From positions 1-47,354 of the IMG/VR virus record IMGVR_UViG_3300009157_000025: a stretch of 47,354 bases of DNA; one strand, 5' to 3'. The notes beneath the pieces are model-generated. The model did not search any database. It was not told the DNA's origin and saw only the letters and a program-made list of their open reading frames with translations. Every line of letters begins with the position of its first letter. The stretch's first letter is position 1. Of the stretch, positions 8,921-47,354 are shown in pieces. Position numbers and translations under genes: made by a program. Source of the DNA: a virus (Duplodnaviria > Caudoviricetes).

Positions 8921-9196
8921 ATGGCATTAGATGACGTTAAATATCCCTTTGGTGATAAGAGGATTGAAGGTAAGGTAATCGTAGTTAATAAAAAAGGATT
9001 CGGATTCATCAGTACGAAAGATGTTCCGTTTACCCGTGTTTATTTCCACTGGACTAATCTGGTTCCTCAAACAATTAACTTTGCAGAGATTAAGAGGAAT
9101 GATCCAGTAGACTTCATTCTTGAAAAGAAGATTGATGGTACTTATAAAGCTATCAAGATTGATATTCTCGAAAGAGAGAATGTAAAAAGTGAGTGA
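8921..9196 (+). CDS. cold-shock domain protein
   Basis: RNP1 KGFGFI and RNP2 VYFHW motifs. Confidence 0.85.
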   Translation: MALDDVKYPFGDKRIEGKVIVVNKKGFGFISTKDVPFTRVYFHWTNLVPQTINFAEIKRNDPVDFILEKKIDGTYKAIKIDILERENVKSE

Positions 9197-10913
9197 TCAT
9201 TATGTCCCAGGAATGGGATTCAATGGTGCTAAGATTATGTTATTGGGGGAATCTCCGTCCCTAAATGATGTAAAGCGTGGTCGCCCTATGTCCGATACTA
9301 GGGACTTAGATGACCTACTTAAATCAGCGGGAATTATTAAAGGTGATTGCTGGTTAAGTACTGTATTCAAATATCCAGTCCCTCCTAGTCCAACTAAAAA
9401 GAAGATTCCAGCATTCGTACGTGCGGAACAGGCTGGATTAGATATCAGGCAATCTCTATTTGAACTTCAGAATGAGATTAATGATGTTAAGCCCAACGTT
9501 ATTATCGGATTAGGTGGAACAGCCTTTTGGGCATTAACAGGTATCCGTCCTAAGAGTAAGAAAAAGAAGAGTGACTCAGATAAAATAGCATTACCCCAAG
9601 GTGGTATCACAGATTATCGTGGTTCCATTATGATGGGTATGGGGCGTAAGGTTGTATGCACTTATAATCCCGCGCAGTTGAATTGGAACGCGCCTGATAT
9701 TGAGTTTATGGGTCACTGGAATAGACAGATTATTCTAGCTGACCTACGTAGGGGCAGAATGGAATCTGCCACTGCTAATTTTGATTTACCCGTTCGTACT
9801 ATTGAAATCTGCCGTTCACTAGAGGACATTAGACGATTCCGTGGACAGTACATCAATAAAGTAGCTGTAGCCGTAGATATTGAAGCAGGTGGTCATTTCC
9901 TTCCTGCATGTATTGGTTTTGCGTTTACTAGAACTCACGCAATGGTAGTTCCATTGTGGAATATTAATGAGTTTAAGCACATCTCTGATATTGAAATGTG
10001 TATGATCTGGAAAGAAGTAGCTGAGATTCTTTATGAAAAAGAAATCGTGGGCCAGAACTTCAATTACGATCGCGACAAAATTCGAAGAATCGGATTCCGT
10101 ATACGCAAACTCCGATCAGATATCATGCTTAAGTGCCACGCGATCAATCCAGAACTTCCTAAATCGCTCTCTTTCAATGCCTCTATATATACGCGTGAAC
10201 CGTTCTACAAAAACGAAGGAATGTACCACGGTACATTTAACGATTTACTTATCGGATGTGGCAGAGATTGTTGCGTTACGAAAGAAATTGATGAAGCTAC
10301 AGAGACCGAGCTGGACGAAATTGGTCAGCACAATTATTTCTACAATTTCATGATGAAGTGGCCTGAACTCTATCTTAGGATGGAGAATACAGGTCTTAAG
10401 ATTGATTACACTAAGAGAGATCAGCTACTTGAGAAGTATGTAGCCTGGAGTGAAAGACTTCAGTATGAAATGTTCCAGTTAACCGGAGATGATGTTAATG
10501 TTAACTCTCCCAAACAAGTCTCGATTCTCTTATTCGAAGTACTTAAATGTCCACGTCGTAACGGTACGTCTGAGGAAGAACTCACGTCTTTACTTAACTT
10601 ACAATCCTTCACCGATCCGACTAAACGTGCCATTGTTGAGAAAATTCTTGAGAAAAGACGGGTGGATAAATCTATTGGAACTTACCTTATGGCGCTTCCG
10701 GATTACGATGGTCGTATGAAAACTACATACTTCCCTTGTCTGGATACGGGTAGAAGTAAGACGGGTCAACAGGAACCTCCTATCAGACCAGATATTGAGA
10801 TTAGAGATTACGAAGGTAAACTTAAACGAAAGAATTTAGGTACAGCATTCCAGACTATGACCAAACATGGTGATATTGGTCAGGATATTAGGAGTATGTA
10901 TGTGCCCGGTTAA
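9189..10913 (+). CDS. polA: family A DNA polymerase, N-terminal part: UDG-like domain, 3'-5' exonuclease, thumb
   Basis: GESP..ND...GRP (UDG family 4-like), TYNPA; ExoI VDIE, ExoII GQNFNYD; NVNSPKQV; DTGR; ends IRSMYVPG just before motif A. Confidence 0.9.
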   Translation: MSDHYVPGMGFNGAKIMLLGESPSLNDVKRGRPMSDTRDLDDLLKSAGIIKGDCWLSTVFKYPVPPSPTKKKIPAFVRAEQAGLDIRQSLFELQNEINDVKPNVIIGLGGTAFWALTGIRPKSKKKKSDSDKIALPQGGITDYRGSIMMGMGRKVVCTYNPAQLNWNAPDIEFMGHWNRQIILADLRRGRMESATANFDLPVRTIEICRSLEDIRRFRGQYINKVAVAVDIEAGGHFLPACIGFAFTRTHAMVVPLWNINEFKHISDIEMCMIWKEVAEILYEKEIVGQNFNYDRDKIRRIGFRIRKLRSDIMLKCHAINPELPKSLSFNASIYTREPFYKNEGMYHGTFNDLLIGCGRDCCVTKEIDEATETELDEIGQHNYFYNFMMKWPELYLRMENTGLKIDYTKRDQLLEKYVAWSERLQYEMFQLTGDDVNVNSPKQVSILLFEVLKCPRRNGTSEEELTSLLNLQSFTDPTKRAIVEKILEKRRVDKSIGTYLMALPDYDGRMKTTYFPCLDTGRSKTGQQEPPIRPDIEIRDYEGKLKRKNLGTAFQTMTKHGDIGQDIRSMYVPG

Positions 10914-11022
10914 ATATGTTTGTCTTGCATGTAAGAGAAGTTGGACAGCTTCTAACCGAAGATATGGTATGTGCCCTTTTTGTAATAGTAGATTAATTGA
11001 ACATACAGTTCCAGAGGAATAA
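10900..11022 (+). CDS. 40-aa zinc-ribbon protein inside the polA gap
   Basis: Translated by hand: MCPVKYVCLACKRSW...MCPFCNS; AGGAG SD at 10890. Confidence 0.65.
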   Translation: MCPVKYVCLACKRSWTASNRRYGMCPFCNSRLIEHTVPEE

Positions 11023-11240
11023 TGTACAAGAATGAGGAACTTCAAAAGTTATTACGTAAGCTATATGAGGCTAATTATCCCCCTACGTTAGAAGTAACTA
11101 TGGAAGAATTATGTCTAGCTGAAGATGTTATTCTTGAACGGTTAAAAAAGGAAGGAAAGCCTACAATTATAGCCGTCGAGGATAAGGGTGTATGGTTTAA
11201 GGGTGTTCAATTACACTTAAGGGATAATAATGTTGATTGA
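11022..11240 (+). CDS. hypothetical protein inside the polA gap
   Basis: ORF track; TAATG coupling; GAGGA SD. Confidence 0.65.
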   Translation: MYKNEELQKLLRKLYEANYPPTLEVTMEELCLAEDVILERLKKEGKPTIIAVEDKGVWFKGVQLHLRDNNVD

Positions 11241-11409
11241 AGTTTACTGCCGTGACTGTGAAGAAATAGATTCCAATGAAGAAGTGGAACAGGTATTAAT
11301 GCCTACACAGGGGGATCTAATGTTTAATCCTGAAACTAGAAGTCAGGCGCAAAACTATGAATGCCCTAAGTGTAGTGCAATTGTTACCATAGTAATTCAT
11401 CCCAATTAA
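11230..11409 (+). CDS. 59-aa zinc-ribbon protein inside the polA gap
   Basis: Translated by hand: MLIEVYCRDC...YECPKC. Confidence 0.65.
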   Translation: MLIEVYCRDCEEIDSNEEVEQVLMPTQGDLMFNPETRSQAQNYECPKCSAIVTIVIHPN

Positions 11410-11410
11410 G

Positions 11411-11644
11411 GTGATTATGAATACTTGTGTAGCCGATGATGCTAATATTGTTAATATTCAGGGTATCCGTTATGTTACATGGGGTGAAGCCACTTCACAG
11501 TATGAACGTGGGTTAAGCCAGCCGTGGTATGTTACTGTAACATATAAGGGTAATCATCAAACATTCAAGTATCGTACTGAAGATCAGGCACGTGCATTCT
11601 TCAGAATGATTCGTGATGCAATGACGGCCAAAAAGAATGGCTGA
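11411..11644 (+). CDS. hypothetical protein inside the polA gap
   Basis: ORF track; AAGGTG SD; stop overlaps start of the polA C-terminal part. Confidence 0.65.
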   Translation: MIMNTCVADDANIVNIQGIRYVTWGEATSQYERGLSQPWYVTVTYKGNHQTFKYRTEDQARAFFRMIRDAMTAKKNG

Positions 11645-12563
11645 TATTTTTGTACAGGCGGATAGTAGTCAGGCAGAAGCGCGTGTTGTATTCCTTCTGG
11701 CCAATGATGAACAAGCATTAAAGGATATAGATGAACACGACTACCATGCTCTCACTGCTTCTTGGTTTTTCGGTGGGACTGAATTTGATTATTCTAAAAA
11801 AGTATTGGGATATGAACACCCAATTAGATTTGCTGGAAAAACTCTTCGGCACGCAGGCCACTTGGGAGCGGGAAAAGGTCGCGCTACTGTTGAGCTTAAC
11901 ACGCAGGCGCGCAAATATAAAATTCCAATAACGATTACTCCGGGGGAGTCTGATAGAGCACTTAAAATCTTTCATGCTAAACAGCCCCGTATTCAAGGGG
12001 TATTCCAGAATGGAATCGTCGAAGCATTAAAGAAGAATCGTACACTTATTGCCGGTATGCCATTCGGATTCGACTGTGAGACGGGCGGCCGTCGTACATT
12101 TTTTGAGAGGTTTGGAGATGACCTATTCCGAATGGCTTTTAGTTATATACCCCAGCGTAGTGTATCTGATAATACTAAAGCTGCTGGTATTCGAATCCTT
12201 AGAATCATCGAAGATATACAAATTATTATGGAAAGTCATGATGCTCTCCTTTTTTGCTTTGATGACAAATATCTTGATAGTTATTGCCCTGTTATTAAAA
12301 GGGAAATGGAAAGGCCTATAAGTTTTGCTAACTGTAGTCTCCCACGTCGTATGTTGAAGATACCTTGTGATATTGAAATCGGTTACAATTATCAAGACTT
12401 GAATAAATATAAGCAAGTTAAAGCATTAGAGACTCCATTAGAACTTGAGGTAGCTAAGGATACTTCATTCCTAGTAGAGTCAATTTATGGAGATACACAC
12501 CTTGAAAAGAGAATTTCGGAGAGTGCAGAATGGAAGAAAGAGCGGAACTTTCTTATCGACTAG
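11637..12563 (+). CDS. polA: family A DNA polymerase, C-terminal part (motifs A, B, C)
   Basis: ADSSQAEARV (A), RFAGKTLRHAGHLG (B), SYIPQ, ESHDALLF (C), IPCDIEIGYN. Confidence 0.9.
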   Translation: MADIFVQADSSQAEARVVFLLANDEQALKDIDEHDYHALTASWFFGGTEFDYSKKVLGYEHPIRFAGKTLRHAGHLGAGKGRATVELNTQARKYKIPITITPGESDRALKIFHAKQPRIQGVFQNGIVEALKKNRTLIAGMPFGFDCETGGRRTFFERFGDDLFRMAFSYIPQRSVSDNTKAAGIRILRIIEDIQIIMESHDALLFCFDDKYLDSYCPVIKREMERPISFANCSLPRRMLKIPCDIEIGYNYQDLNKYKQVKALETPLELEVAKDTSFLVESIYGDTHLEKRISESAEWKKERNFLID

Positions 12564-16076: not shown

Positions 16077-16163
16077 GCCCCTATGGTGAAACTGGCAGAC
16101 ACAACGGACTTAAAATCCGTCTATCGAAAGATAATCTCGGTTCGACTCCGAGTAGGGGCACCA
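16077..16163 (+). tRNA. trnL: tRNA-Leu(UAA)
   Basis: GCCCCTA/TAGGGGC acceptor stem, ACGGA-CTTAAAA-TCCGT anticodon arm, long variable arm, GTTCGACTC T-loop, encoded CCA. Confidence 0.97.
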
Positions 16164-16571: not shown

Positions 16572-16860
16572 GCATTGTGGTAAGCCCAATAAGACTACGA
16601 GACAGATTTACTGTAGTTCAAAATGCTATACTGATTCTGGTCATCGTAAGGTGATGGGTGCTAAGAATGGTGCTAAGGCATATAGTAAATACTGGCAAGC
16701 ATATGCTGAAGCATTTAAGATGAAATGTGGACATCTACCACATGCATATCAAGTACGTATGCTAATTAAAATTGGTGAAAGACGAGCTTATCGTAGGAAC
16801 TTCCGTGAATCTAAAATTAATAGAGAAGCTGGCAAAATTAGCCAACAACAATCCGAATGA
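16531..16860 (+). CDS. zinc-finger basic protein
   Basis: CKHCG...YCSSKC. Confidence 0.6.
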   Translation: MMEYQVLVRKPLCKHCGKPNKTTRQIYCSSKCYTDSGHRKVMGAKNGAKAYSKYWQAYAEAFKMKCGHLPHAYQVRMLIKIGERRAYRRNFRESKINREAGKISQQQSE

Positions 16861-18190: not shown

Positions 18191-21100
18191 TTATCTCCCG
18201 TAAGTCTGAACACCACCACCACCGAATGCGGACGCCGACGAGAATAACCCCTGTAGTAACGTAGGATCTTCTTTCCAGATTTCGTATAGATCCTGTGCTA
18301 CTATGGGGGTAATTTTATTCACAGCCTCATCCTTGAAGCTAAACGGTTTTCCATCATAATCCTTCCCTTCCATCCAACTCCAGATAAACGCAGGTACGGG
18401 TGCAAGTTTATTCTTCATGAAGTTTCCGAATACACTAGCACGAGTAGGCATACCGAACTTACCCGAAGTTAGATCATGTGTTTTACCCACTCCACCTGCT
18501 TGTTTAGGAGAAGTAGTAGACTGACCAGTTAATAAACGCGCGGCCGCGACTAAGAACTGTTGATGTCCACCGAATGGATCAATACGGGTATTACCGAATC
18601 TAATCTTACCGAAGTCTGAATTGGTAGCATCCTCAGTATTTACAGTAGCTCCAATACCCTTAGCTAACTGACCAATCAGCAATCCTGCACTAGCCAATCC
18701 TAACATAGAACGTAACTGTTCTCTACGGACTACAGGTGGCATCTCCGCATAGCCGAACGGATTAAACGTACGTGTGTACATCTGTAGACGGCTAGTTGTT
18801 AAACGAGGGCTGAAGAAGATTTGTGCTAATGGCTTAGCCGCAGGTTCAAATGCACCTAAGTTACCACGTCCAGTAGCAATATTGATAAAGTCAGCAATCT
18901 TCTTAGCTTCACCCAGATTGTTCCGTACACCTGCCTCATTAACTAAGTTTTTGAACGTGTCCGCTCTTAACTTGTTTAAATAAGCTGTGTATGCACGTAC
19001 CGAGGGTTTGACGAACCATTTAGTACCAGCAAATTCTTCCGCGAACTTACTTCTGAATAACTCCTCACGATGATCCAGTGTATCCGTTAAAGAGAGTCCA
19101 GCTTCATTAGCAAATGACTTACCCTTCTTACCCGTATCACGGAACATACCTGATGGGTCATTCTTAATAGAGTCCATTACGGTAGCATAACCCTTATCTG
19201 AACCCATAGCCTCAAACATAGGCTTCCAACTAGTCCACCATTCTTTACGTGTAATTAGTGGTAATCCCTGTCTACCGGGAGCACTAATATCAGCCGAGGT
19301 TAATACTGTACGCTGGAAATTCAATGCCTTTTCAAGCAAGTTTTCCTTTTCATCTCGCGTTACAGTAGTATCCTCTTTGATCTTTTTAAGCATATCCCCA
19401 GCAGCCATTACCTGAGAATCTACTTTACCCTTACGCTGGATATCCTTAACTACTGCATCAGGTACAGGGATATCACTAGTCTTACCTTTAACTTTAGGAC
19501 TCCACTTAATAGGCTTGTTAAAGGTGTTACTTAAGTTTTCTCCTGTAGGATTATTTGGTCTTACGGGAGAAGTTCGCTCTCCATTTGATCCAACATCGCC
19601 GAAAACGCTTTCGCCTCCGAAGGGTTTAACTTCTGAATTGACGCCCGTTCCGCTAAGAAGGTTTTTTGCAGTTCCTTGGCGCCCCTTTCTCGTAGTATAG
19701 AAGAGTAATGCGTTCTGAACGTCTTTAGAATATCCACTATCGGATTTCGATTGGAAGAGGCCATTTAATTCATCTACTCCTTTATGCCATGCTTCACTAC
19801 CTGATTTAGCATAGACTTCTGCGGTTGCTCTTAACCATGATAATCCATGTGCAGCATCCCTCTGTCCCATAGATGAAGCTGCAACTTCATTCATGTATTT
19901 CTGGAAAAATGATCCAATTTCAGGATCAGTAGTATCTACATTTGACCAATCAATTTCGCTGAATTCATCACCATAAGTTTGAGTATGGCCTACCTCATGC
20001 CAAGTGGTAGACATATTCTCACGAGCAGCTTCCCTAGGATCAGATTTACGAATAATAAATTCAAAGGGATTAATTAAAATTGTAGCCTTACCAGCAGAAT
20101 CAGGATTAGGAATCCAGACACCATGATGGCCGGGATCTAATGAAATACCAACCTTTTCAATTCTATCCCCCCATGCAGGATTTACTGCATTTAGGGCATC
20201 ATTAACTAAAGAATCAACTTTCTCTGAGAAATCAAAGATAAATCGATTACTTGATAATGCACTAAGCTCCTTTGGATTTAACAGATTATCTGGATCAAAA
20301 ATAACAGTAGGACGGTGCCTAGTTTTACCCTTAAAAGTCAGAGGTTCGGCAATAGGGTGCATGTTAGTATACATGTCCCTGAGTGATTGCCGCTGTTTAT
20401 CAAGCGCGCCTGACTTAATATTATCTTCAATCCATTTATCAATAGCCGCTTTAACGTGATCAGCCACCTGTTCACGATTAAGAGTGTAAGGATAAAATTC
20501 CTCTCCTTCGGCTACAGTTGCACGAACGTTAGCTTTAATATTCTCAGGAACACCTTTTAACGCACCATGTTGTGAGTAACTATCTCCTTCAGAGAATTGA
20601 TACATTCCATTATTTAATGTATCTATCATATACTGCTGTACCCTAGCATCGGGGTCAGGAGTTTCATAATGGAAATCAATTTCCGCTCCAGGAATTTTTA
20701 ATGTATCCTGAATGGGTAATTCTGGAGAAGGATCAATGTTAGTATGATCATCCAATCCAATCTTATTTGGTAAATCAACTCCCTTATTAAAGAAATTATC
20801 TAATTGCTCAGGAGTTTTAGATTGCCAAAGATGTCTAATTTGAAGAGGAGATTTACTACCTACTGAATTGTTTCCAATTGCTGTTGCAAAAGTTTCTGCA
20901 ACTCCTATATTGTTATTCTTTTTATTATAATAAATAGTAGCCTTAAATCCTGTAGGGGTATCTCTATTAACTACCTCACGTTTTAATGGAACTCCAAAAT
21001 CTTGATTCTTTAAATCTTTTGGAGTGCCTTCAAACGTGTATTTAACTTTCTTTCCATTTTCAATTACAACAGATTCATACCTGGAATATCTACCACCAAG

Positions 21101-23707
21101 CATAGGACTAGCTTTAGCAAAGCCAAATCCACCCGATGCAGCAGCTTCATCCATTTTACCACTTTTACCAACATCAGTAAAAACAGTATAAATCTGTTCC
21201 GGAGTCATTCCTCTACCATAATCACGAATGGTTAAGGATGGTGCATCTTCTCCCGTAACGGGATCTTTAGTGGTTCTATCTAATACAACTCTAAGAGGCT
21301 CAGTCGATCCACTAATCTTATGTTCGTCAATAGAATTCTGTAATAGCTCTTTAACAGCAACTACTTCAGGCTTTTTACCATATAAACTATTACCTAAGAT
21401 ATCTAATACACGAGGCTCAGCACCACCCATAGCCACATTTTCAGGCTTCTTTTTGGCCCTCATCTCCATGGGGAATACATTAGGTTCATCTCCAAACACC
21501 GGTCGCTGTGTACTACCACTACCAGCAGATTTCATTCCTTTATTGCCTGTTTTCTGAATAACTTCTAATTCACCCGAACGAATTTTAGCTGTAATTTCTT
21601 CAGGATTATTGATATTATCCAACCAGAAAGTTTCGCCATCAGGAGTAGCAACTTCAAGGGTATCCCCGTGCATTACTTCTTCTGCATCTGCCTTAGGATA
21701 TCTAATAGGCTGCTGTTCAGTATCAAACTTCTCATAACGAGGATCAGATAAAATTTCTGTTAATTTATGAGCTTCTTTCAGTTGTTCAGGAGATAAATCC
21801 CCTTGATTCTGTAAGTCCCAAAACTTATTTCTTACTTTATTATACTGTTCCTGGGTAAGAGGTTTTCCTGTATAACCACGCTGATCAGGATCAGGTTCCC
21901 ATCCAATCTGACCATTATCATCGATAACAGAAGGATTATCAGATAACTGATCTTTCTCAAATGCGCGAGCCTTATCAGCATCTAAAGAAGCCTTAAAGCG
22001 TGCAAGTAATTCTGGTGGTACGTTCGCATCATAAACAATCGCCTGGATGCTTTCTTTTCCATTAGCCAAATCAGCCGTAGCTCTGTGATGTCCCCCTGCG
22101 AGAATATTCTCATCTCCAATTCGTATAACCACAGGTGCTTGATCATCCATTCTACCCTTAGCTGAATCCGGTACTTCAGTTAATCGTGGACGGTCGCCTT
22201 TTCCCTGATAATCACTAACAGTATTGGGATCAACGGTACTCTGAGTACCCTTTAATCCCTGTAGGGGGATATCCTCTAAACGGGGGTTAGTATAATCCAC
22301 CTGTTTATTACGAAGCATTTCATCCATTACAGCTTCGTCTGCTACAGGGAATGGACTCGGTTCTTTACCCATTTCAGGGTCATTAGTAGTATCTAATTTC
22401 TTAGGGAATACTGATCTTCCCTGATCATCGTACTGATTATTCTTATAACGTTCTCTTTCATCAGCTGCTATTTTATTAGCAATTTCCTGCTGTCTAGTTA
22501 ATGGAGGTTCATCCTTAACACGGGGCTGTCTACCAAATCCACGATTCTCGAATACAACAGGTTCAGCCGGTTTATCAGGTTGTAATACATCACGTACAGG
22601 TAATTCAGATGGTCTATTAGGCTGGAAATCTGCAATTGACCTACCAGATTCATCAAATACACCATTAGGAGGTAATGGATCACCTCTACGTGGAATATTT
22701 AATGGTCCCGGACGTGCAGGTTCAGCATTAACATCAAATGAATTATCCGGTAAAAATTCATTCGGCATCCTAACCTGTGGTAGATCAGGCTTCTGATTAA
22801 AATCAAAACTACGCTGCCCAGTGGGTGCAGGAATATTCTCACCCGGAGGATTAACATCAGCTAAGAATGGCTGCTTGTATTCACCTGTCCATCCGGCGGG
22901 TACATCAGGTCCATGTACAGGGCCAGATAATGATTCAGCTAAATGATTAACATGCGGACTATTACGCAGTCCGAGCGCACCAACCGCAGCACCGCCTACA
23001 GCATTAAGCTTATCTTCCCAAGCCATATTGGGATCAGCTAATGCCCTACCACCTTCAATAACCTGTGGAATACCTGCCGCACGTTCAATATTACGTAACG
23101 TATTTGCAGCACGGAATTTACCAATCTGCTTAATACCTTCTACGGCCGCGTCCGTCGTAGGAGCACCTTCAGCCGCAAATGTTCGTGCGGCAGCTCTAGC
23201 ACCTGATTTAGCTAATGCTGTACCTGCAGAGCCTGCACCAATAGTACCTAAACTTAACGGACTAGTCATACCATCCGTTACGTGGCCTAACGATTCAATA
23301 TATGCAGATGCTACGCTACGGAGGCCGTAATCAGCTTCCCTGTTAGGATTAATCCATTCACTAGCTTTTTTAGCTAATTTAGAAGCAGACGGCAAGTCTG
23401 GAAATACATCAGTTAATGGGGTATTAACCGCATTCCAAATACTCTTAAGTCCGAAGGCATTAGCCTCATTATCAGGAATATCCTCACCCGCCGGCCGTCT
23501 ATTAGGATCACCTGTATATTTAGGCTGTTCAGGCTTTGTAGGTGCCCTTAAATCTACATTCTCAAGTGGCTCGAATCCCTGTAGATTTAATTGAGTTTCA
23601 GGCTCAAATCCTTCAGGATAACCATACTTACTAACTGAAGGAAGATCAGCGTTAGTCCACTTAGCTCTATGATTAGAAGGACGTGCAGGCTCAGGAAACT
23701 GTGGCAT
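18191..23707 (-). CDS. 1838-aa polyvalent internal virion/ejection protein: ParB-like, GHKL ATPase and zincin domains
   Basis: PVVI..GD..ILAGGHHRATA; KELLQNSIDE, RDYGRGM, GKSGK..GGFGFA; WHEVGH...AHG..W; last large gene of the structural operon. Confidence 0.8.
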   Translation of the reverse strand: MPQFPEPARPSNHRAKWTNADLPSVSKYGYPEGFEPETQLNLQGFEPLENVDLRAPTKPEQPKYTGDPNRRPAGEDIPDNEANAFGLKSIWNAVNTPLTDVFPDLPSASKLAKKASEWINPNREADYGLRSVASAYIESLGHVTDGMTSPLSLGTIGAGSAGTALAKSGARAAARTFAAEGAPTTDAAVEGIKQIGKFRAANTLRNIERAAGIPQVIEGGRALADPNMAWEDKLNAVGGAAVGALGLRNSPHVNHLAESLSGPVHGPDVPAGWTGEYKQPFLADVNPPGENIPAPTGQRSFDFNQKPDLPQVRMPNEFLPDNSFDVNAEPARPGPLNIPRRGDPLPPNGVFDESGRSIADFQPNRPSELPVRDVLQPDKPAEPVVFENRGFGRQPRVKDEPPLTRQQEIANKIAADERERYKNNQYDDQGRSVFPKKLDTTNDPEMGKEPSPFPVADEAVMDEMLRNKQVDYTNPRLEDIPLQGLKGTQSTVDPNTVSDYQGKGDRPRLTEVPDSAKGRMDDQAPVVIRIGDENILAGGHHRATADLANGKESIQAIVYDANVPPELLARFKASLDADKARAFEKDQLSDNPSVIDDNGQIGWEPDPDQRGYTGKPLTQEQYNKVRNKFWDLQNQGDLSPEQLKEAHKLTEILSDPRYEKFDTEQQPIRYPKADAEEVMHGDTLEVATPDGETFWLDNINNPEEITAKIRSGELEVIQKTGNKGMKSAGSGSTQRPVFGDEPNVFPMEMRAKKKPENVAMGGAEPRVLDILGNSLYGKKPEVVAVKELLQNSIDEHKISGSTEPLRVVLDRTTKDPVTGEDAPSLTIRDYGRGMTPEQIYTVFTDVGKSGKMDEAAASGGFGFAKASPMLGGRYSRYESVVIENGKKVKYTFEGTPKDLKNQDFGVPLKREVVNRDTPTGFKATIYYNKKNNNIGVAETFATAIGNNSVGSKSPLQIRHLWQSKTPEQLDNFFNKGVDLPNKIGLDDHTNIDPSPELPIQDTLKIPGAEIDFHYETPDPDARVQQYMIDTLNNGMYQFSEGDSYSQHGALKGVPENIKANVRATVAEGEEFYPYTLNREQVADHVKAAIDKWIEDNIKSGALDKQRQSLRDMYTNMHPIAEPLTFKGKTRHRPTVIFDPDNLLNPKELSALSSNRFIFDFSEKVDSLVNDALNAVNPAWGDRIEKVGISLDPGHHGVWIPNPDSAGKATILINPFEFIIRKSDPREAARENMSTTWHEVGHTQTYGDEFSEIDWSNVDTTDPEIGSFFQKYMNEVAASSMGQRDAAHGLSWLRATAEVYAKSGSEAWHKGVDELNGLFQSKSDSGYSKDVQNALLFYTTRKGRQGTAKNLLSGTGVNSEVKPFGGESVFGDVGSNGERTSPVRPNNPTGENLSNTFNKPIKWSPKVKGKTSDIPVPDAVVKDIQRKGKVDSQVMAAGDMLKKIKEDTTVTRDEKENLLEKALNFQRTVLTSADISAPGRQGLPLITRKEWWTSWKPMFEAMGSDKGYATVMDSIKNDPSGMFRDTGKKGKSFANEAGLSLTDTLDHREELFRSKFAEEFAGTKWFVKPSVRAYTAYLNKLRADTFKNLVNEAGVRNNLGEAKKIADFINIATGRGNLGAFEPAAKPLAQIFFSPRLTTSRLQMYTRTFNPFGYAEMPPVVRREQLRSMLGLASAGLLIGQLAKGIGATVNTEDATNSDFGKIRFGNTRIDPFGGHQQFLVAAARLLTGQSTTSPKQAGGVGKTHDLTSGKFGMPTRASVFGNFMKNKLAPVPAFIWSWMEGKDYDGKPFSFKDEAVNKITPIVAQDLYEIWKEDPTLLQGLFSSASAFGGGGVQTYGR

Positions 23708-32530: not shown

Positions 32531-33093
32531 TAGTGAACTCCCTTTTCATAATTACGAGGAACTACAATTGCTTCACCGTGTGCAAGTGCATCACCTGTAG
32601 CAGTTTCCTCACCAAAAAGCTCATGTTGAATTGCTTCAACTCTCCTAGCAGTTTCTTCTGGATCGTTAGTCTTATCTTTATACTTGGCTAATGAATTATC
32701 CCCATGAATCTTAGCATGAAGAGCATCAATGATGATCTTAGCTACTTCATATCGTGGAGGTAAATAATTCATTTTATTATCAACGAATGACCAGATTGGT
32801 TCATAGGAAATTTTATGAACTGTCATTTCCTTAGCCGCATCCATTTCGCCAATAAAAGATAAACGTTCCAAAATATAACGGTCAGCTGCCCACTGTTTAT
32901 ACTTCGGAACTTCACGAACTTCAGGACTAAGAAGTTCTACTCCTTTGTCGGTATAATGCATCAGTCGTTTTTCATACTGATCATTACTCCAGACAACACG
33001 ATAATTCGGACGATCGGAAGTCATATCAACACCAAACTCTCTACGGAGTTGAATATTAATACGATCCACTTCATCATCCACAGGGCCGCTCAT
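32530..33093 (-). CDS. hypothetical protein in the structural operon
   Basis: ORF track; GGAGG SD. Confidence 0.65.
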   Translation of the reverse strand: MSGPVDDEVDRINIQLRREFGVDMTSDRPNYRVVWSNDQYEKRLMHYTDKGVELLSPEVREVPKYKQWAADRYILERLSFIGEMDAAKEMTVHKISYEPIWSFVDNKMNYLPPRYEVAKIIIDALHAKIHGDNSLAKYKDKTNDPEETARRVEAIQHELFGEETATGDALAHGEAIVVPRNYEKGVH

Positions 33094-33845
33094 TTAGCCT
33101 CCGCAAATGGAGATCCAACCACAAAGTTACCCTTAGCAACATCTCTATCAACTTCGTCCTGAGTAGGCTGATGTTGGGGTAAATAAAAGATGTTCTTCTG
33201 GTCAAACGTACCCGCGGTCATCCACTCACCATTTTCCTGACGTAATGGGAAGATAGTAGCAGATAACATATGACCAACAGGACACTCAAGATCACACCAA
33301 ATCTTATACCCATAAATATCACGAGCGCGATTAAAGAAATCAATATCATCGCACCAATGATCTTTTTCGCACTGTCCCAGACGAATCCACGGAAGATCAT
33401 CTGCCATCTTCTTGAATACGTCAGTCTTGATAAGTGCTGCACCTAATCCAGTATTCTTAACTTCAACAAGTCCTTTAAGACCCGGACGTAAGATACTGAA
33501 ACGGCACGAACCATTGGTATAAGACTCATCGAATAGAATCGGAAGATGTGGATGACTCCTCATAAGATACAGTCCGGTGACAATATCTTTATCATGAGCC
33601 AACAGCTTCTTCAGAATGTCAGGACGTGGAACAACATCATCATCCAGAAAAAGGATATGAGTCATACCATTCTGAATCGCCAACTCAATCATCGTATTAC
33701 GATTACGAGCGGGAGACTGTCCATGTGCAAATGACTGAGCAACTTCCGTATCAGGAATGTTCTTCTCAATCATATTAACATAATCATAGAAATCCGCACG
33801 ACGTGCCATTTCCATAGTGGGAACGCAAATCATTACTCTGTTCAT
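33090..33845 (-). CDS. GT-A fold glycosyltransferase (family 2-like)
   Basis: ICVPT, ARNRN, ILFLDDD, DIVTGLY, TGLGAALIKTDVF, DDIDFF, VGH. Confidence 0.9.
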   Translation of the reverse strand: MNRVMICVPTMEMARRADFYDYVNMIEKNIPDTEVAQSFAHGQSPARNRNTMIELAIQNGMTHILFLDDDVVPRPDILKKLLAHDKDIVTGLYLMRSHPHLPILFDESYTNGSCRFSILRPGLKGLVEVKNTGLGAALIKTDVFKKMADDLPWIRLGQCEKDHWCDDIDFFNRARDIYGYKIWCDLECPVGHMLSATIFPLRQENGEWMTAGTFDQKNIFYLPQHQPTQDEVDRDVAKGNFVVGSPFAEAK

Positions 33846-33856
33846 TGAAATAATTC

Positions 33857-34807
33857 CTAGTAAACGGGGAACCATGCGCCATTTGTAGACGGAGCAGGTT
33901 CAAGTCCATTGTTAATGTAATCCGTAGCTCGTCTAACAGTTTCACCTAAATCTTTTACATTTTTAACTAATACAATCTCCTTGTTCTTTTGTTTGAGTTT
34001 AGCAATTGGGAGATATGTTTCCGATACATACTCCTTTGTTCCGCCAACGGCAAGATCACCTTTTCCTCTAAGCGGTACACCGCAGTTGAAGCAGTGTGCT
34101 CTAATTTGATCTTCAAATGCAGTAATGGGGAGGTTGTACCAGTTATCGGATACAGGTAATCCTGTGTCATTAGCATTATCCATTAACATCGCCTGAGCAC
34201 CTGCAATCTCACAGAAGAATGCACGTAATCCATGACGAGTCTGACAAATCATAGCTGACCACAACTGATTAATGTCACAGTTGTTAATCATCTTAACTTT
34301 ATCTGTATACATGATATTAAGATCGTTCATGGATACATATACGGGGGAATGACCACTATCATACTGACCAATAGGATTACATTCGGGCCAATCGCGCTTC
34401 ATTTCCTCTAATGCTGCCTTATCACAGTGAACATTTAAGTTCGATACAGCAGGATTGAAAGTTTCACGGCATAACGCGCCATGACCCATTAAATTATTAC
34501 TCCATAATCCACGATTTTCAAATGGAATATATTTAGCTAAAATCTCACAGAATACATGAAACTGTGGGTGCATAGTTGGATTACCACCAAAGATTCCAAC
34601 TACACCAAAATAATTACGTAATGATTTTACAGCAGTTTCAAAGTTTTCCTCACTCATCATTACAGGACGGCCGCCAAAGTTAGAACCCTGGGTACAATGA
34701 GTACAGGATAAGTTACACGCACGAGTAATATGAATCTGGATGATACCTCCACGCCAAGTGGGACGTTTATCACCCGGAGCCTTCATATTTGAAAATTCAA
34801 AGTTCAT
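33857..34807 (-). CDS. radical SAM enzyme
   Basis: ITRACNLSCTHC (CxxxCxxC), GGNPTMHP, additional C-terminal Cys (FFCE, CFNC). Confidence 0.9.
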   Translation of the reverse strand: MNFEFSNMKAPGDKRPTWRGGIIQIHITRACNLSCTHCTQGSNFGGRPVMMSEENFETAVKSLRNYFGVVGIFGGNPTMHPQFHVFCEILAKYIPFENRGLWSNNLMGHGALCRETFNPAVSNLNVHCDKAALEEMKRDWPECNPIGQYDSGHSPVYVSMNDLNIMYTDKVKMINNCDINQLWSAMICQTRHGLRAFFCEIAGAQAMLMDNANDTGLPVSDNWYNLPITAFEDQIRAHCFNCGVPLRGKGDLAVGGTKEYVSETYLPIAKLKQKNKEIVLVKNVKDLGETVRRATDYINNGLEPAPSTNGAWFPVY

Positions 34808-35334
34808 AATTCCACCCACCAAATTGTACCACAAGTGTTAACTTTATTTCCAAAAATTTCATTAACCGCTTCAATAACTCCGTGCCATGCATCACAATAA
34901 TCATGTCCACAAAGAAGTCCCTTTTTCATAAGAGACATGGCATGATAAATATCTTTTTTAACTGCTTCGTACTCGTGAATTGCATCAATAAATATCATAT
35001 TAGGGGGGTCAATAATTTTAAAATCTAGGAAGTTCATTCGATTAACTTGAACTTGACCAGACTCAATATAACGTAAGAGATTATTAAAAAAGATTGTATA
35101 TTTTATATTGTCCCCATTTTCAAGTAGGGTACCTTTGTAGATTTGGAATTTACCGTCCCACGGGTCAATGGCATGAATAATACCGCGCGTATTATCTGCC
35201 ATTGCCCGTGTGGATCGGCCGCAGTATGAACCTACTTCTAAGATCAGAGTTGACTTAGCCGCAGATTCGGCAAGAAAGTATAGCTCCTGCTCCGTCATCC
35301 AACCAGTGATTTTAAGAGCAGAAGCTATATTCAT
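34804..35334 (-). CDS. class I SAM-dependent methyltransferase (Methyltransf_24-like)
   Basis: ITGWM, LEVGSYCGRST, IDPW, IFIDAIHEYEAV..D, CGHDY. Confidence 0.9.
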   Translation of the reverse strand: MNIASALKITGWMTEQELYFLAESAAKSTLILEVGSYCGRSTRAMADNTRGIIHAIDPWDGKFQIYKGTLLENGDNIKYTIFFNNLLRYIESGQVQVNRMNFLDFKIIDPPNMIFIDAIHEYEAVKKDIYHAMSLMKKGLLCGHDYCDAWHGVIEAVNEIFGNKVNTCGTIWWVEL

Positions 35335-36214: not shown

Positions 36215-37465
36215 TTAGTACCCCGACGGAACAGCCAAGTTATCGATATACGCAGTAGCCGCAGGATTAGTAACGAACGTCTGCATACCAACTACCATGT
36301 AGAAGATATCAGAAGTCATAACACCACCCGAAGCTGCACGCACTTCGAAAATGCTACGGCCATCAGTCTTATAGAAGCCGATGGGTAACACTTCGCCACG
36401 TCCCCACACATCATCCACAACGAAGTCGATGCGCGTCTTATCCCAGTTATACGAGCACTTAACTGGAGCACCCGCCATCTGCATGTTGTCATTGAAGTAC
36501 ATATTCAGGCCTTCTTCTTTAGCCTGTTTATGGATGATCGAAACTAACTGTCCGATCTCTTCATATGCCTGCTTCTGGCAAGGATGCGTCCACGCATTCG
36601 GATTGAAATCATTATCGATACCAGTACGATTACCAATCTTGTTAATAGCAAGACGGGCAAACGGTAACACTAATCCCGAAGAATTAGCATTAACACGGTT
36701 CGACAGGATTTCAGGCGTCGTATTACGCGCGAATCCTAACCACGTACCAGTGGTAGAATTCGAGTGATGATACGGAACACCATACAGCGCAGGTAACGAA
36801 GCAGGTGCAGTAATACCAGCAGTAACAATAACGTCACCAGCAGTAGTAGCAGCAATTTGCGGCGTAACCGTCACAGTCTTGTTTTCAACGTCCCAAGAAG
36901 TAATGGTACCACTACCCTTGTTAGTTGCCAACGTAGTATCAAACACCTGCACCGTCTGACCATAACGCATCAAACGTACACCGAAACCATCGGTAGTACA
37001 TAAGAAAACGCTAGAGCCACCAGCAGGAGTATCTGAAGTAATCGTACCGATTACACCAGTACCCGGCTGCATTAACTGACTGTCTAACTGACGACGTAAT
37101 TCGTCAATAGCAGTAGCAGTAAGACGCCGCACAGCATTAACAATAGCCTTCCGATCATCATCGGTAGACCACTGAACTAACTTCGTGTATTCAATGTTCT
37201 CGCTGACGAATACAGAACTAAGCACAGCCTTATCGAAAGTCGGGCCGCCGCCACGTCCTAAATCGCCACCGTTTGCATCAAAGTACTGGAAGCTACCACC
37301 GGGACGAATTTCTAACGGAATACGCATCTGTCGAGAACTAATCTTCTCAACATCACGCTTCTTAATGTTAGAATAAAACTTATCGTCCCGCTCAAACAAC
37401 ACTCGAACTTTAGGGATAACCCTTTCAAGTTCTAATGCTGTAACATTAGATTCAACAACTGCCAT
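36215..37465 (-). CDS. major capsid protein
   Basis: 416 aa; follows portal and scaffold; HK97-like ending (NPAATAYIDNL); biased codon usage. Confidence 0.85.
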   Translation of the reverse strand: MAVVESNVTALELERVIPKVRVLFERDDKFYSNIKKRDVEKISSRQMRIPLEIRPGGSFQYFDANGGDLGRGGGPTFDKAVLSSVFVSENIEYTKLVQWSTDDDRKAIVNAVRRLTATAIDELRRQLDSQLMQPGTGVIGTITSDTPAGGSSVFLCTTDGFGVRLMRYGQTVQVFDTTLATNKGSGTITSWDVENKTVTVTPQIAATTAGDVIVTAGITAPASLPALYGVPYHHSNSTTGTWLGFARNTTPEILSNRVNANSSGLVLPFARLAINKIGNRTGIDNDFNPNAWTHPCQKQAYEEIGQLVSIIHKQAKEEGLNMYFNDNMQMAGAPVKCSYNWDKTRIDFVVDDVWGRGEVLPIGFYKTDGRSIFEVRAASGGVMTSDIFYMVVGMQTFVTNPAATAYIDNLAVPSGY

Positions 37466-44279: not shown

Positions 44280-44300
44280 ATATACACCAAAGACTTGTAA

Positions 44301-44329
44301 AGCTTATCATACTTACTTCGGGGTGTCAA
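44301..44329 (-). promoter_or_regulatory. sigma70-type promoter for the morphogenesis operon
   Basis: Minus strand TTGACA-17 nt-(TGA)TAAGCT. Confidence 0.75.
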
Positions 44330-44387
44330 CTGTCCCCTTTTTGACACTCCCCGTTAAGTCCTTCGGAATGAATGACTTGGGGAACCG

Positions 44388-44416
44388 TTGACAAACGGAT
44401 CAGTGTGTGTTACAAT
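44388..44416 (+). promoter_or_regulatory. sigma70-type promoter, divergent from the late promoter
   Basis: TTGACA-17 nt-(TGT)TACAAT. Confidence 0.85.
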
Positions 44417-44452: not shown

Positions 44453-44611
44453 ATGAGTAAGTGGCAGATGATTAAATGTTTCTTCGGATTCCACACACCT
44501 GAAGTAGTTGGATATCCCTGTACTACAAATACAGAAGGGTGGTTAAGATATGTTGAATGTGAATATTGTGGTGTCTATTTAAGGGAGCATACAGAAGATG
44601 AACATAAGTGA
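44453..44611 (+). CDS. 52-aa Cys/His protein
   Basis: Translated by hand: KCFFGFH...CEYCG; AAGGAG SD. Confidence 0.6.
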   Translation: MSKWQMIKCFFGFHTPEVVGYPCTTNTEGWLRYVECEYCGVYLREHTEDEHK

Positions 44612-44930
44612 TATCATTTATGAATGCCAGGTTAAACCTAACACTTATGGATTAATCACCAGGAGAACATGGAAGGAATTAAAAACTGTATTTGATACAC
44701 ATGTTAAACTGTCAGGCGCGTCTAGGATTAGTAAGGTAGAATCAGTCTATCACTATGCCAATGGAAGTAAGATATACTTCAGTACAATACATTGCCTTAG
44801 GAATATAGAGAGACATCTGGGAATGTATTATGACTTTATGGATATAGATTATATTATGCCTAAACATGGAATGGAACTGCTAAAGAGGATTAGACCAGAT
44901 GACATCCGCAAAATACTCAAGGATCTGTAA
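44598..44930 (+). CDS. stand-alone fragment resembling a terminase ATPase subdomain
   Basis: LITRRTWKEL...Y.NGSKIYF...G..YDF..ID; no Walker A; GGGAG SD. Confidence 0.65.
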   Translation: MNISDIIYECQVKPNTYGLITRRTWKELKTVFDTHVKLSGASRISKVESVYHYANGSKIYFSTIHCLRNIERHLGMYYDFMDIDYIMPKHGMELLKRIRPDDIRKILKDL

Positions 44931-45042
44931 GGAATGTGGAACTTCAATCAGCACCAATCGCAAAAACCAACGTTTTTGCACGGAGAAGTGTAGGAATAAA
45001 CATTGGGTAAAGGAGAATCCGAGGATTAAACGTGAAGTATAA
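44899..45042 (+). CDS. 47-aa zinc-finger protein
   Basis: Translated by hand: CKECG...FCTEKCR; GAGGA SD. Confidence 0.6.
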   Translation: MTSAKYSRICKECGTSISTNRKNQRFCTEKCRNKHWVKENPRIKREV

Positions 45043-45259
45043 GTATGGTATATGTAAGGAGTGTAAAACAAAGAGACGAATCTTTTATTTAGGATCTAGA
45101 GGGGACTATCGTAAATATAGATGTTCAAAGGGTCATACCTGGGAAGTGGAGATATTAGGAACTGAAAAGATAGCAGGAATAATGCAGGAGGTTATGCTCA
45201 AACATATAAAGAACATATTTGAAAGGGATGATACTTTCTATAAAAATCTAAAAAAGTAA
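45032..45259 (+). CDS. zinc-ribbon protein ending in a copy of the capsid N-terminal motif
   Basis: CKEC...CSKGH; C-terminus FERDDTFYKNLKK; GAGGA SD. Confidence 0.7.
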   Translation: MKYKYGICKECKTKRRIFYLGSRGDYRKYRCSKGHTWEVEILGTEKIAGIMQEVMLKHIKNIFERDDTFYKNLKK

Positions 45260-45827: not shown

Positions 45828-45873
45828 TTGACATCTGCCCCCGACTATGATACACTTCTTAAGTCGGGGGCAG
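45828..45873 (+). promoter_or_regulatory. sigma70-type promoter whose -10 lies in the loop of a perfect 12-bp inverted repeat
   Basis: TTGACA 45828-45833, 17 nt, TACACT 45851-45856; CTGCCCCCGACT/AGTCGGGGGCAG. Confidence 0.75.
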
Positions 45874-45955
45874 TTGAGAGTGACCGACAAACGAGCGAGA
45901 ATGACCTGTTTCGGGGACATCGGAAACGACGGTAATTTACTAATTAGGAGAGTGT

Positions 45956-46963: not shown

Positions 46964-47354
<391 letters not shown>

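Follow-up and report, generated by a model that had tools for sequence, protein, structure and literature searches.

Our analyses have identified a predicted 75 amino acid (aa) phage protein in which a putative zinc ribbon is followed by a C-terminal tail that is, by sequence comparison, homologous to residues ~8–36 of the major capsid protein. The protein is encoded in a 47,354-nt stretch of DNA (IMGVR_UViG_3300009157_000025; referred to here as the window), which is a tailed-phage genome with a plus-strand replication arm and a minus-strand packaging and head arm. Judged from the proteins recovered, the tail is a portable module that is present on at least four unrelated carriers. This combination of a zinc ribbon and a capsid arm is a real feature, undescribed as far as searched, and we consider it a distinct possibility, somewhat short of probable, that the tail serves as a decoy for a host protein recognising the capsid segment. 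On either a decoy or another reading, an abundant group of soil and sediment phages carries hundreds of selected capsid self-copies that lie outside all library families.

The zinc-ribbon protein and the capsid arm

The features of the window that bear on this finding are as follows.

36215..37465, minus strand: major capsid protein, HK97 fold, SU10-like (phrog_14242; Foldseek)
37358..37465, minus strand: N-terminal arm of the capsid protein, residues 1–36, the copied segment (invariance in 59 capsids)
44388..44416, plus strand: sigma-70-like promoter, TTGACA-17-TACAAT with TG (11/12, consensus match alone)
44598..44930, plus strand: 110-aa open reading frame (ORF) with weak likeness to a part of the terminase ATPase domain (phrog_979, E 0.0011)
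45021..45025, plus strand: GAGGA, ribosome-binding-like site 6 nt ahead of the GTG (sequence)
45032..45259, plus strand: 75-aa ORF, zinc ribbon and capsid N-arm tail (GTG start; full-length homologues)
45032..45142, plus strand: predicted Cys3-His zinc ribbon, C8, C11, C31 and H35, with CSKGHxW (motif)
45170..45256, plus strand: capsid N-arm copy, corresponding to capsid residues ~8–36 (core FERDDTFY, 45218–45241)

The zinc-ribbon ORF terminates in FERDDTFYKNLKK (45218–45256) and the capsid gene (36215–37465, minus strand) contains FERDDKFYSNIKK (37396–37358). A sequence-only reading of the window had claimed that these segments agree at 10 of 13 residues, and direct comparison of the last 13 residues of the ORF with capsid residues 24–36 confirmed this, together with the claim that six of the ten identical residues are encoded by different codons. 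In a BLASTP comparison of the ORF with the capsid protein, 11 of 29 positions are identical and 19 positive (E 2e-6). None of 1000 shuffles of the ORF, compared against 8,000 residues from 24 other window proteins, reached 10/13 (the best was 9/13, obtained once), and among the matches listed from a six-frame scan of the window the sole other 10/13 pair outside low complexity is formed by two paralogous structural genes. A profile built from capsids only scores this ORF at 25.7 bits and 16 members of its family at 17.3–43.9 bits, the best of 3,200 shuffles reaching 6.6 bits. A further likeness, proposed for the stretch just upstream (QEVMLKHIKNI against LERVIPKVRVL), holds for the hydrophobic pattern and fails for identity, which is limited to 1 of 11 residues.

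The capsid protein (416 aa) matches the major head protein family phrog_14242 (E 1.8e-8), and its predicted model (pLDDT 64; a first model with pLDDT 48 was discarded) matches capsids of the HK97 fold, including that of SU10 (Foldseek, best E 1.8e-7; 7f38, 7z48). We recovered 382 relatives of it from IMG/VR and no sequence relatives from the PDB, and PF17236 is found on 12–17% of its look-alike clusters. Eight residues (viz. E12, E14, V16, F24, R26, D27, D28, and F30) are invariant in 59 capsids of 46–86% identity. In the model the copied segment would correspond to the N-arm and its junction, a low-confidence part which includes a helix at residues 5–19 and in which residues 1–12 and 20–27 fall under 50. 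Compared with the N-arm of a SU10-like HK97-fold capsid, the tail is free-standing and C-terminal, its K29 is replaced and its first helix is degenerate. Prediction of a complex of capsid, scaffold tip, zinc-ribbon protein and zinc gave scores of 0.27 and 0.01 (mark 0.32) and weighs neither way.

The zinc-ribbon protein is one of a family with at least 21 members, 75–93 residues long, which combine a CxxC...CSKGH ribbon with a C-terminal F-x-R-D-D-x-F copy of the capsid arm. The ORF had appeared to be a singleton, a single-sequence search finding only itself and pattern scans returning tail matches and its own copies; this view was overturned by a profile in which the ORF was padded with tail-only rows. 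The padded profile returned 93 proteins, 15 of them full-length homologues (32–53% identical) that all bear the tail. The padded search is biased to tail-bearers, and IMG/VR was therefore scanned with two DNA patterns for CSKGHxW alone. Among the 152 stretches recovered, seven scored at least 69 bits on the ribbon profile; all seven bear the tail and four are new. The motif is thus kept in homologues of the ORF, as the sequence-only reading would have it, both in the 15 full-length homologues and in all 7 of the tail-independent finds. The next score below these seven, 43 bits, belongs to a repeat protein of another kind, and one 41-aa ORF without the tail (L016) scores a weak 18 bits; remote tail-less relatives of the ribbon could escape a scan of this type. 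Look-alike clusters in the Atlas are of 75–77 aa (score 0.93).

In 17 of 17 zinc-ribbon proteins, including L193, residues C8, C11, R15, C31, S32, and H35 of the ribbon and F63, R65, D66, D67, and F69 of the tail are invariant. The four conserved metal ligands, arranged in two knuckles, make these proteins putative zinc binders by motif. The part of the copy from F24 onward forms the last 12–14 residues in all 16 zinc-ribbon proteins measured, and in two proteins (P0131 and P0125) the tail still resembles the entire capsid helix. The invariance of R15 and S32, together with the fixed C-terminal tail, suggests that the ribbon may serve a separate purpose. None of 16 members has a match above cut-off to a named zinc-finger family in Pfam, the PDB holds no sequence match to the family under E 0.28, and no family in Pfam, PHROG or PDB covers the zinc-ribbon protein or its relatives.

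Other carriers and the divergence of the tails

A first pattern scan returned proteins of 85–100 aa in which a leader, RRxFL...LLWxPG, is followed by the same capsid copy. A profile of these twin-arginine-leader proteins gave 383 matches, and 120 of the 120 listed fit the capsid-only profile, many of them as far as residue 57. Further carriers include acidic helical proteins (P0154, P0155, and P0161), P0158, and an RR-FL variant (P0153 and P0156). The leader also bears capsid residues ~225–268 (L122, E 2.7e-9; L016, E 8e-6), capsid C-terminal strands in weaker matches (E 4e-4; L098–L100 and L179), and the N-termini of P22-type coat proteins, a P22-type coat being encoded in 4 of 5 such records tested. 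In G001 the leader tail is 53% identical to the phage's own P22-type coat over 32 residues; P22-type tails match their own coat best in G001 and G007, and do not in G002 and G008. These non-contiguous pieces may represent several epitopes rather than one interface. For several leader proteins the tail could not be assigned to a source. Within the window there is no match to the leader profile. Copies of the scaffold tip were sought among 56 candidate small RR-x-F/L ORFs, and none was found.

Several related arrangements were also seen. In L110, L114, L115, L124, L138, L139, and L125, from unrelated phages, the leader is fused to other capsid N-termini (P22-type coat and others), and L098–L100 and L106 contain tandem leader genes with different pieces (N-arm and C-terminal strands, or inner loop and N-arm). 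A leader-plus-tail gene in L104 (5237–5539) is broken by one in-frame stop at a position occupied by Trp in relatives. In L129/L191 (1038–1448) an RR-FL variant that combines the capsid tail with an arginine-rich end lies directly ahead of the gene for the terminase large subunit.

A second copy of the N-arm was found in 4 of 18 records picked by their capsid, two being of the zinc-ribbon type (with identical proteins) and two of the leader type. The carrier genomes encode a capsid of the same family, as seen in the four that could be checked (G009, 79%; G010, 73%; G014 and G015, 86%). The mimic genes lie outside the head module in every genome examined, and their sporadic distribution and differing placement mark them as dispensable and mobile.

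The sequence-only reading had also proposed selection on the peptide, which is supported: the motif is kept in diverged homologues, and in 6 of 6 pairs (4 genes) the tail core has pS values of 0.63–1.07 against pN values of 0.10–0.30, with synonymous sites saturated. For the tails of the leader family, pN/pS is 0.15–0.22 (three informative pairs). Its rejection of a recent DNA duplication from the phage's own capsid gene likewise stands, on the codon differences and on the tail DNA, which is nearest to leader-family genes. The window tail shares 39 of 48 nt with two leader genes, which had been retrieved by tail likeness, against a mean of 25 and a maximum of 33 for 69 capsids.

Its description of the tail as a copy of the phage's own capsid calls for correction, the tail being closer to other mimic tails than to that capsid. 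For 16 of 17 zinc-ribbon tails the leader-tail profile gives a better score than the capsid profile does, the greater breadth of the leader profile being an advantage in this comparison, and positions 32 and 34 are common to both mimic families and different in capsids. At position 29, K is found in 33 of 49 capsids, one of T, I, M, or L in 97 of 124 leader tails, and one of T, L, or S in 17 of 17 ribbon tails (T in 15), and although T29 was partly built into the search words, the four new tail-independent finds have I, A, I, and A and not K. The motif also fails to co-vary with the cognate capsid: in the window, G009, and G010, K or R at capsid position 29 stands opposite T in the tail, in a capsid that itself varies little. 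E12 is present in 49 of 49 capsids and 123 of 124 leader tails but in 4 of 17 zinc-ribbon tails; E12, R15, and P18 are together kept by the leader family and lost in the zinc-ribbon family. Because the tails resemble each other more than they do the capsid and these three residues are missing from the ribbon family, we infer that the duplication is old and that tails have passed between carriers.

Candidate roles of the tail

A decoy is favoured because several separate capsid pieces occur on one leader, because the mimic genes are sporadic and lie outside the head module, because the tails drift from the capsid at positions that the capsid keeps, and because a weak terminase-like fragment (44598–44930) is located in the same gene run. 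In such a role the tail would occupy a host protein that reads a short capsid segment, before or during synthesis of the real capsid. The zinc ribbon would hold the tail helix steady, expression would run ahead of the capsid gene, the partner would be a host protein (sensor, protease or chaperone) that recognises the capsid segment in linear or partly unfolded form, and binding of the fragment would leave the sensor unfired. The protein would then be a counter-defence acting at the sensing step by means of the phage's own unchangeable signature, and the fragments would serve as bait for new capsid sensors.

The CapRel-SJ46 defence is reportedly triggered by capsid protein, and Lit is a capsid-triggered defence that acts via the Gol peptide. 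Together with Thoeris and Avs7, these systems would be the source of selection to which a capsid decoy responds. Capsid proteins are described as triggers of CapRel, Thoeris, and Avs7 (PMC13728456, PMC13581612), and Upx has been modelled binding the unfolded terminase core (PMC13601566); the passages on Thoeris, Avs7, and CapRel (PMC13728456, PMC13581612) name neither the N-arm as the sensed part nor a capsid-fragment decoy of phages. Avs7 binds a broad folded capsid surface (A and P domains, and E-loop), with no mention of the N-arm as the bound part found in the available passages of PMC13581612, and in one screen the capsid triggers needed oligomerisation (PMC13728456); a 30-residue piece would therefore not decoy such sensors. 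Free terminase-like T4 vs.8 is toxic with Avs2 (PMC13601566), so that a free copy is able to activate a sensor rather than block it. A further point against a decoy is that all of the conserved tail residues are invariant in capsids too, which would be just as consistent with binding to the assembly machinery.

The tail could accordingly be viewed as a portable docking tag, which would bind the scaffold tip or the N-arm groove and bring the basic zinc ribbon, or other cargos, to or into the assembling head. We regard this as possible but doubtful. In P22 (D14, E15, and E18; PMC9965877) and in 80alpha (PMC5644958) it is the N-arm that binds the scaffold, and the internal proteins of T4, diverse as they are as cargos, share a single conserved targeting sequence (PMC3012670). 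The presence of one tail on at least four unrelated carriers, its fixed terminal position (the last 12–14 residues from F24 in 16 zinc-ribbon proteins), and the retention of E12 (123/124), R15, and P18 in leader tails are all consistent with docking. However, these three residues are not kept by the zinc-ribbon tails, the leader family bears capsid pieces besides the N-arm, no genome examined has the gene within its head module, most relatives have no copy at all (a second copy in 4/18 records), and at position 29 the tails do not follow their cognate capsid. As a docking tag, the tail would be an address of 13–30 residues for the loading of cargo into HK97-type heads. An improbable alternative has the tail vying with the native N-arm, thereby delaying assembly of the phage's own heads or spoiling those of co-infecting relatives. 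The tails do retain hydrophobic periodicity and an aromatic core, folding could be poisoned by a capsid fragment of any kind (an effect that would account for there being several different ones), and CpmB (PMC5644958) and Tab (PMC10884400) are precedents for interference with assembly. Nevertheless, a competitor or dominant-negative would poison the phage itself, since its core does not vary within that phage's capsid family, no antidote is evident, and no integrase or lysogeny gene was found among the 46 window proteins scanned. Least credible to us, and quite unlikely, is a tail with no mimic function, either as an old capsid-derived helix that is now purely structural or as a neutral relic of recombination. 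The window tail has lost several positions that the leader family keeps, and its DNA is nearest to leader-family genes (39/48 nt; capsids ≤33), from which it follows that tails move by recombination; against such a relic, the charged F-x-R-D-D-x-F core does not vary among unrelated carriers, which are unable to share a fold, and synonymous sites are saturated.

The decoy reading admits a broader form, which we offer as speculative, in which tailed phages keep a modular decoy kit, placing short, immutable pieces of structural proteins on interchangeable carriers that soak up pattern-recognition proteins of the host. With the same reserve, the pieces might include the capsid N-arm, an inner capsid loop, the C-terminal strands and perhaps the terminase core, and the carriers the zinc ribbon, the twin-arginine leader and a helical bundle. 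Such a kit would amount to viral self-mimicry of a danger signal, and its fragments would map the epitopes read by unknown sensors.

Among known systems, the capsid targeting sequence of T4 is N-terminal and is cleaved. The tail in this work is, in contrast, C-terminal and homologous to the capsid N-arm. A point of likeness is that in T4, too, one short conserved peptide is found on diverse small accessory proteins (PMC3012670). CpmB of SaPI1 is likewise a small protein with a copied head-assembly motif at its C-terminus and an unrelated N-terminal domain, but it is satellite-encoded, copies the tip of the scaffold and acts on a helper phage, whereas here a phage copies the capsid arm of its own family (PMC5644958); the window represents a complete phage, replication and head genes included, and the copy is of the capsid. 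T4 vs.8, too, is an accessory gene of a phage in which part of a structural protein known to host immunity is repeated, although in that case a whole terminase-ATPase-like domain activates Avs2 on co-expression, in place of a 30-residue capsid piece on a zinc ribbon (PMC13601566). The available parts of two reviews (PMC13728456, PMC12409349) name DNA mimics, sponges, and antitoxin mimics, and not capsid-fragment mimics. In the part of the literature covered, we found no description of capsid-fragment mimics in phages or of this zinc-ribbon family.

Genomic setting

The zinc-ribbon ORF is the last of four small ORFs (44453–45259) behind the promoter-like sequence at 44388..44416, and its GTG start overlaps the end of the upstream ORF (44899–45042). 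An identical copy is present on a second metagenome contig (L150), and contigs from four other runs are identical wherever they cover this stretch. A 37-aa database call from an inner GTG exists (P0127); since homologues share the long form, the 75-aa form is, by sequence comparison, the conserved one. The promoter-like sequence is the top sigma-70-like match in the 3 kb scanned, where 10 such sites were observed against 7.1 ± 3.2 in shuffles. As proof of early expression it was rejected, because a similar promoter-like sequence precedes the minus-strand packaging arm (inverted repeat I1). A promoter-like pair with common flanks and GC-rich inverted repeats (44292–44337, minus strand, and 45828–45877, plus strand) flanks the small operon and points apart.

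The 110-aa ORF at 44598–44930 weakly resembles the stretch of the terminase ATPase between Walker A and B. It scores 11.9 bits on the family terminase profile, a value reached by none of 2000 shuffles, its pairwise comparison with the window's own terminase gives E 0.40, and no relatives of it were found. An ORF in L193 (11139–11375) is similar to it by eye and has no library match.

The zinc-ribbon gene lies beside the packaging arm in the window. In relatives it is found at the far end of the replication arm, adjoining a gene whose homologue in the window is at 16772, and because of this placement we infer that the gene has moved. A tRNA-Leu(TAA) gene (16077–16163, plus strand) is located near the place that the zinc-ribbon gene occupies in relatives. 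A search for the host returned five genome bins from unrelated phyla, which are probably mis-binned viral contigs.

Other features of the window include, where the structural arm ends, a protein of 1838 aa (18191–23707, minus strand) with an rIIA-like stretch, probably a GHKL ATPase, at residues ~760–890, and genes of methyltransferase-like, radical SAM, and glycosyltransferase-like types amid the structural genes (33090–35334, minus strand). DNA polymerase A is encoded as two ORFs of 574 and 308 aa with three small ORFs between them (9189–12563, plus strand), where relatives have one ORF of 816–851 aa, and it has an N-terminal domain of the uracil-DNA glycosylase family. Long poly-T/poly-A runs at 47070–47354 and in the first ~100 bases are probably assembly or library artefacts.
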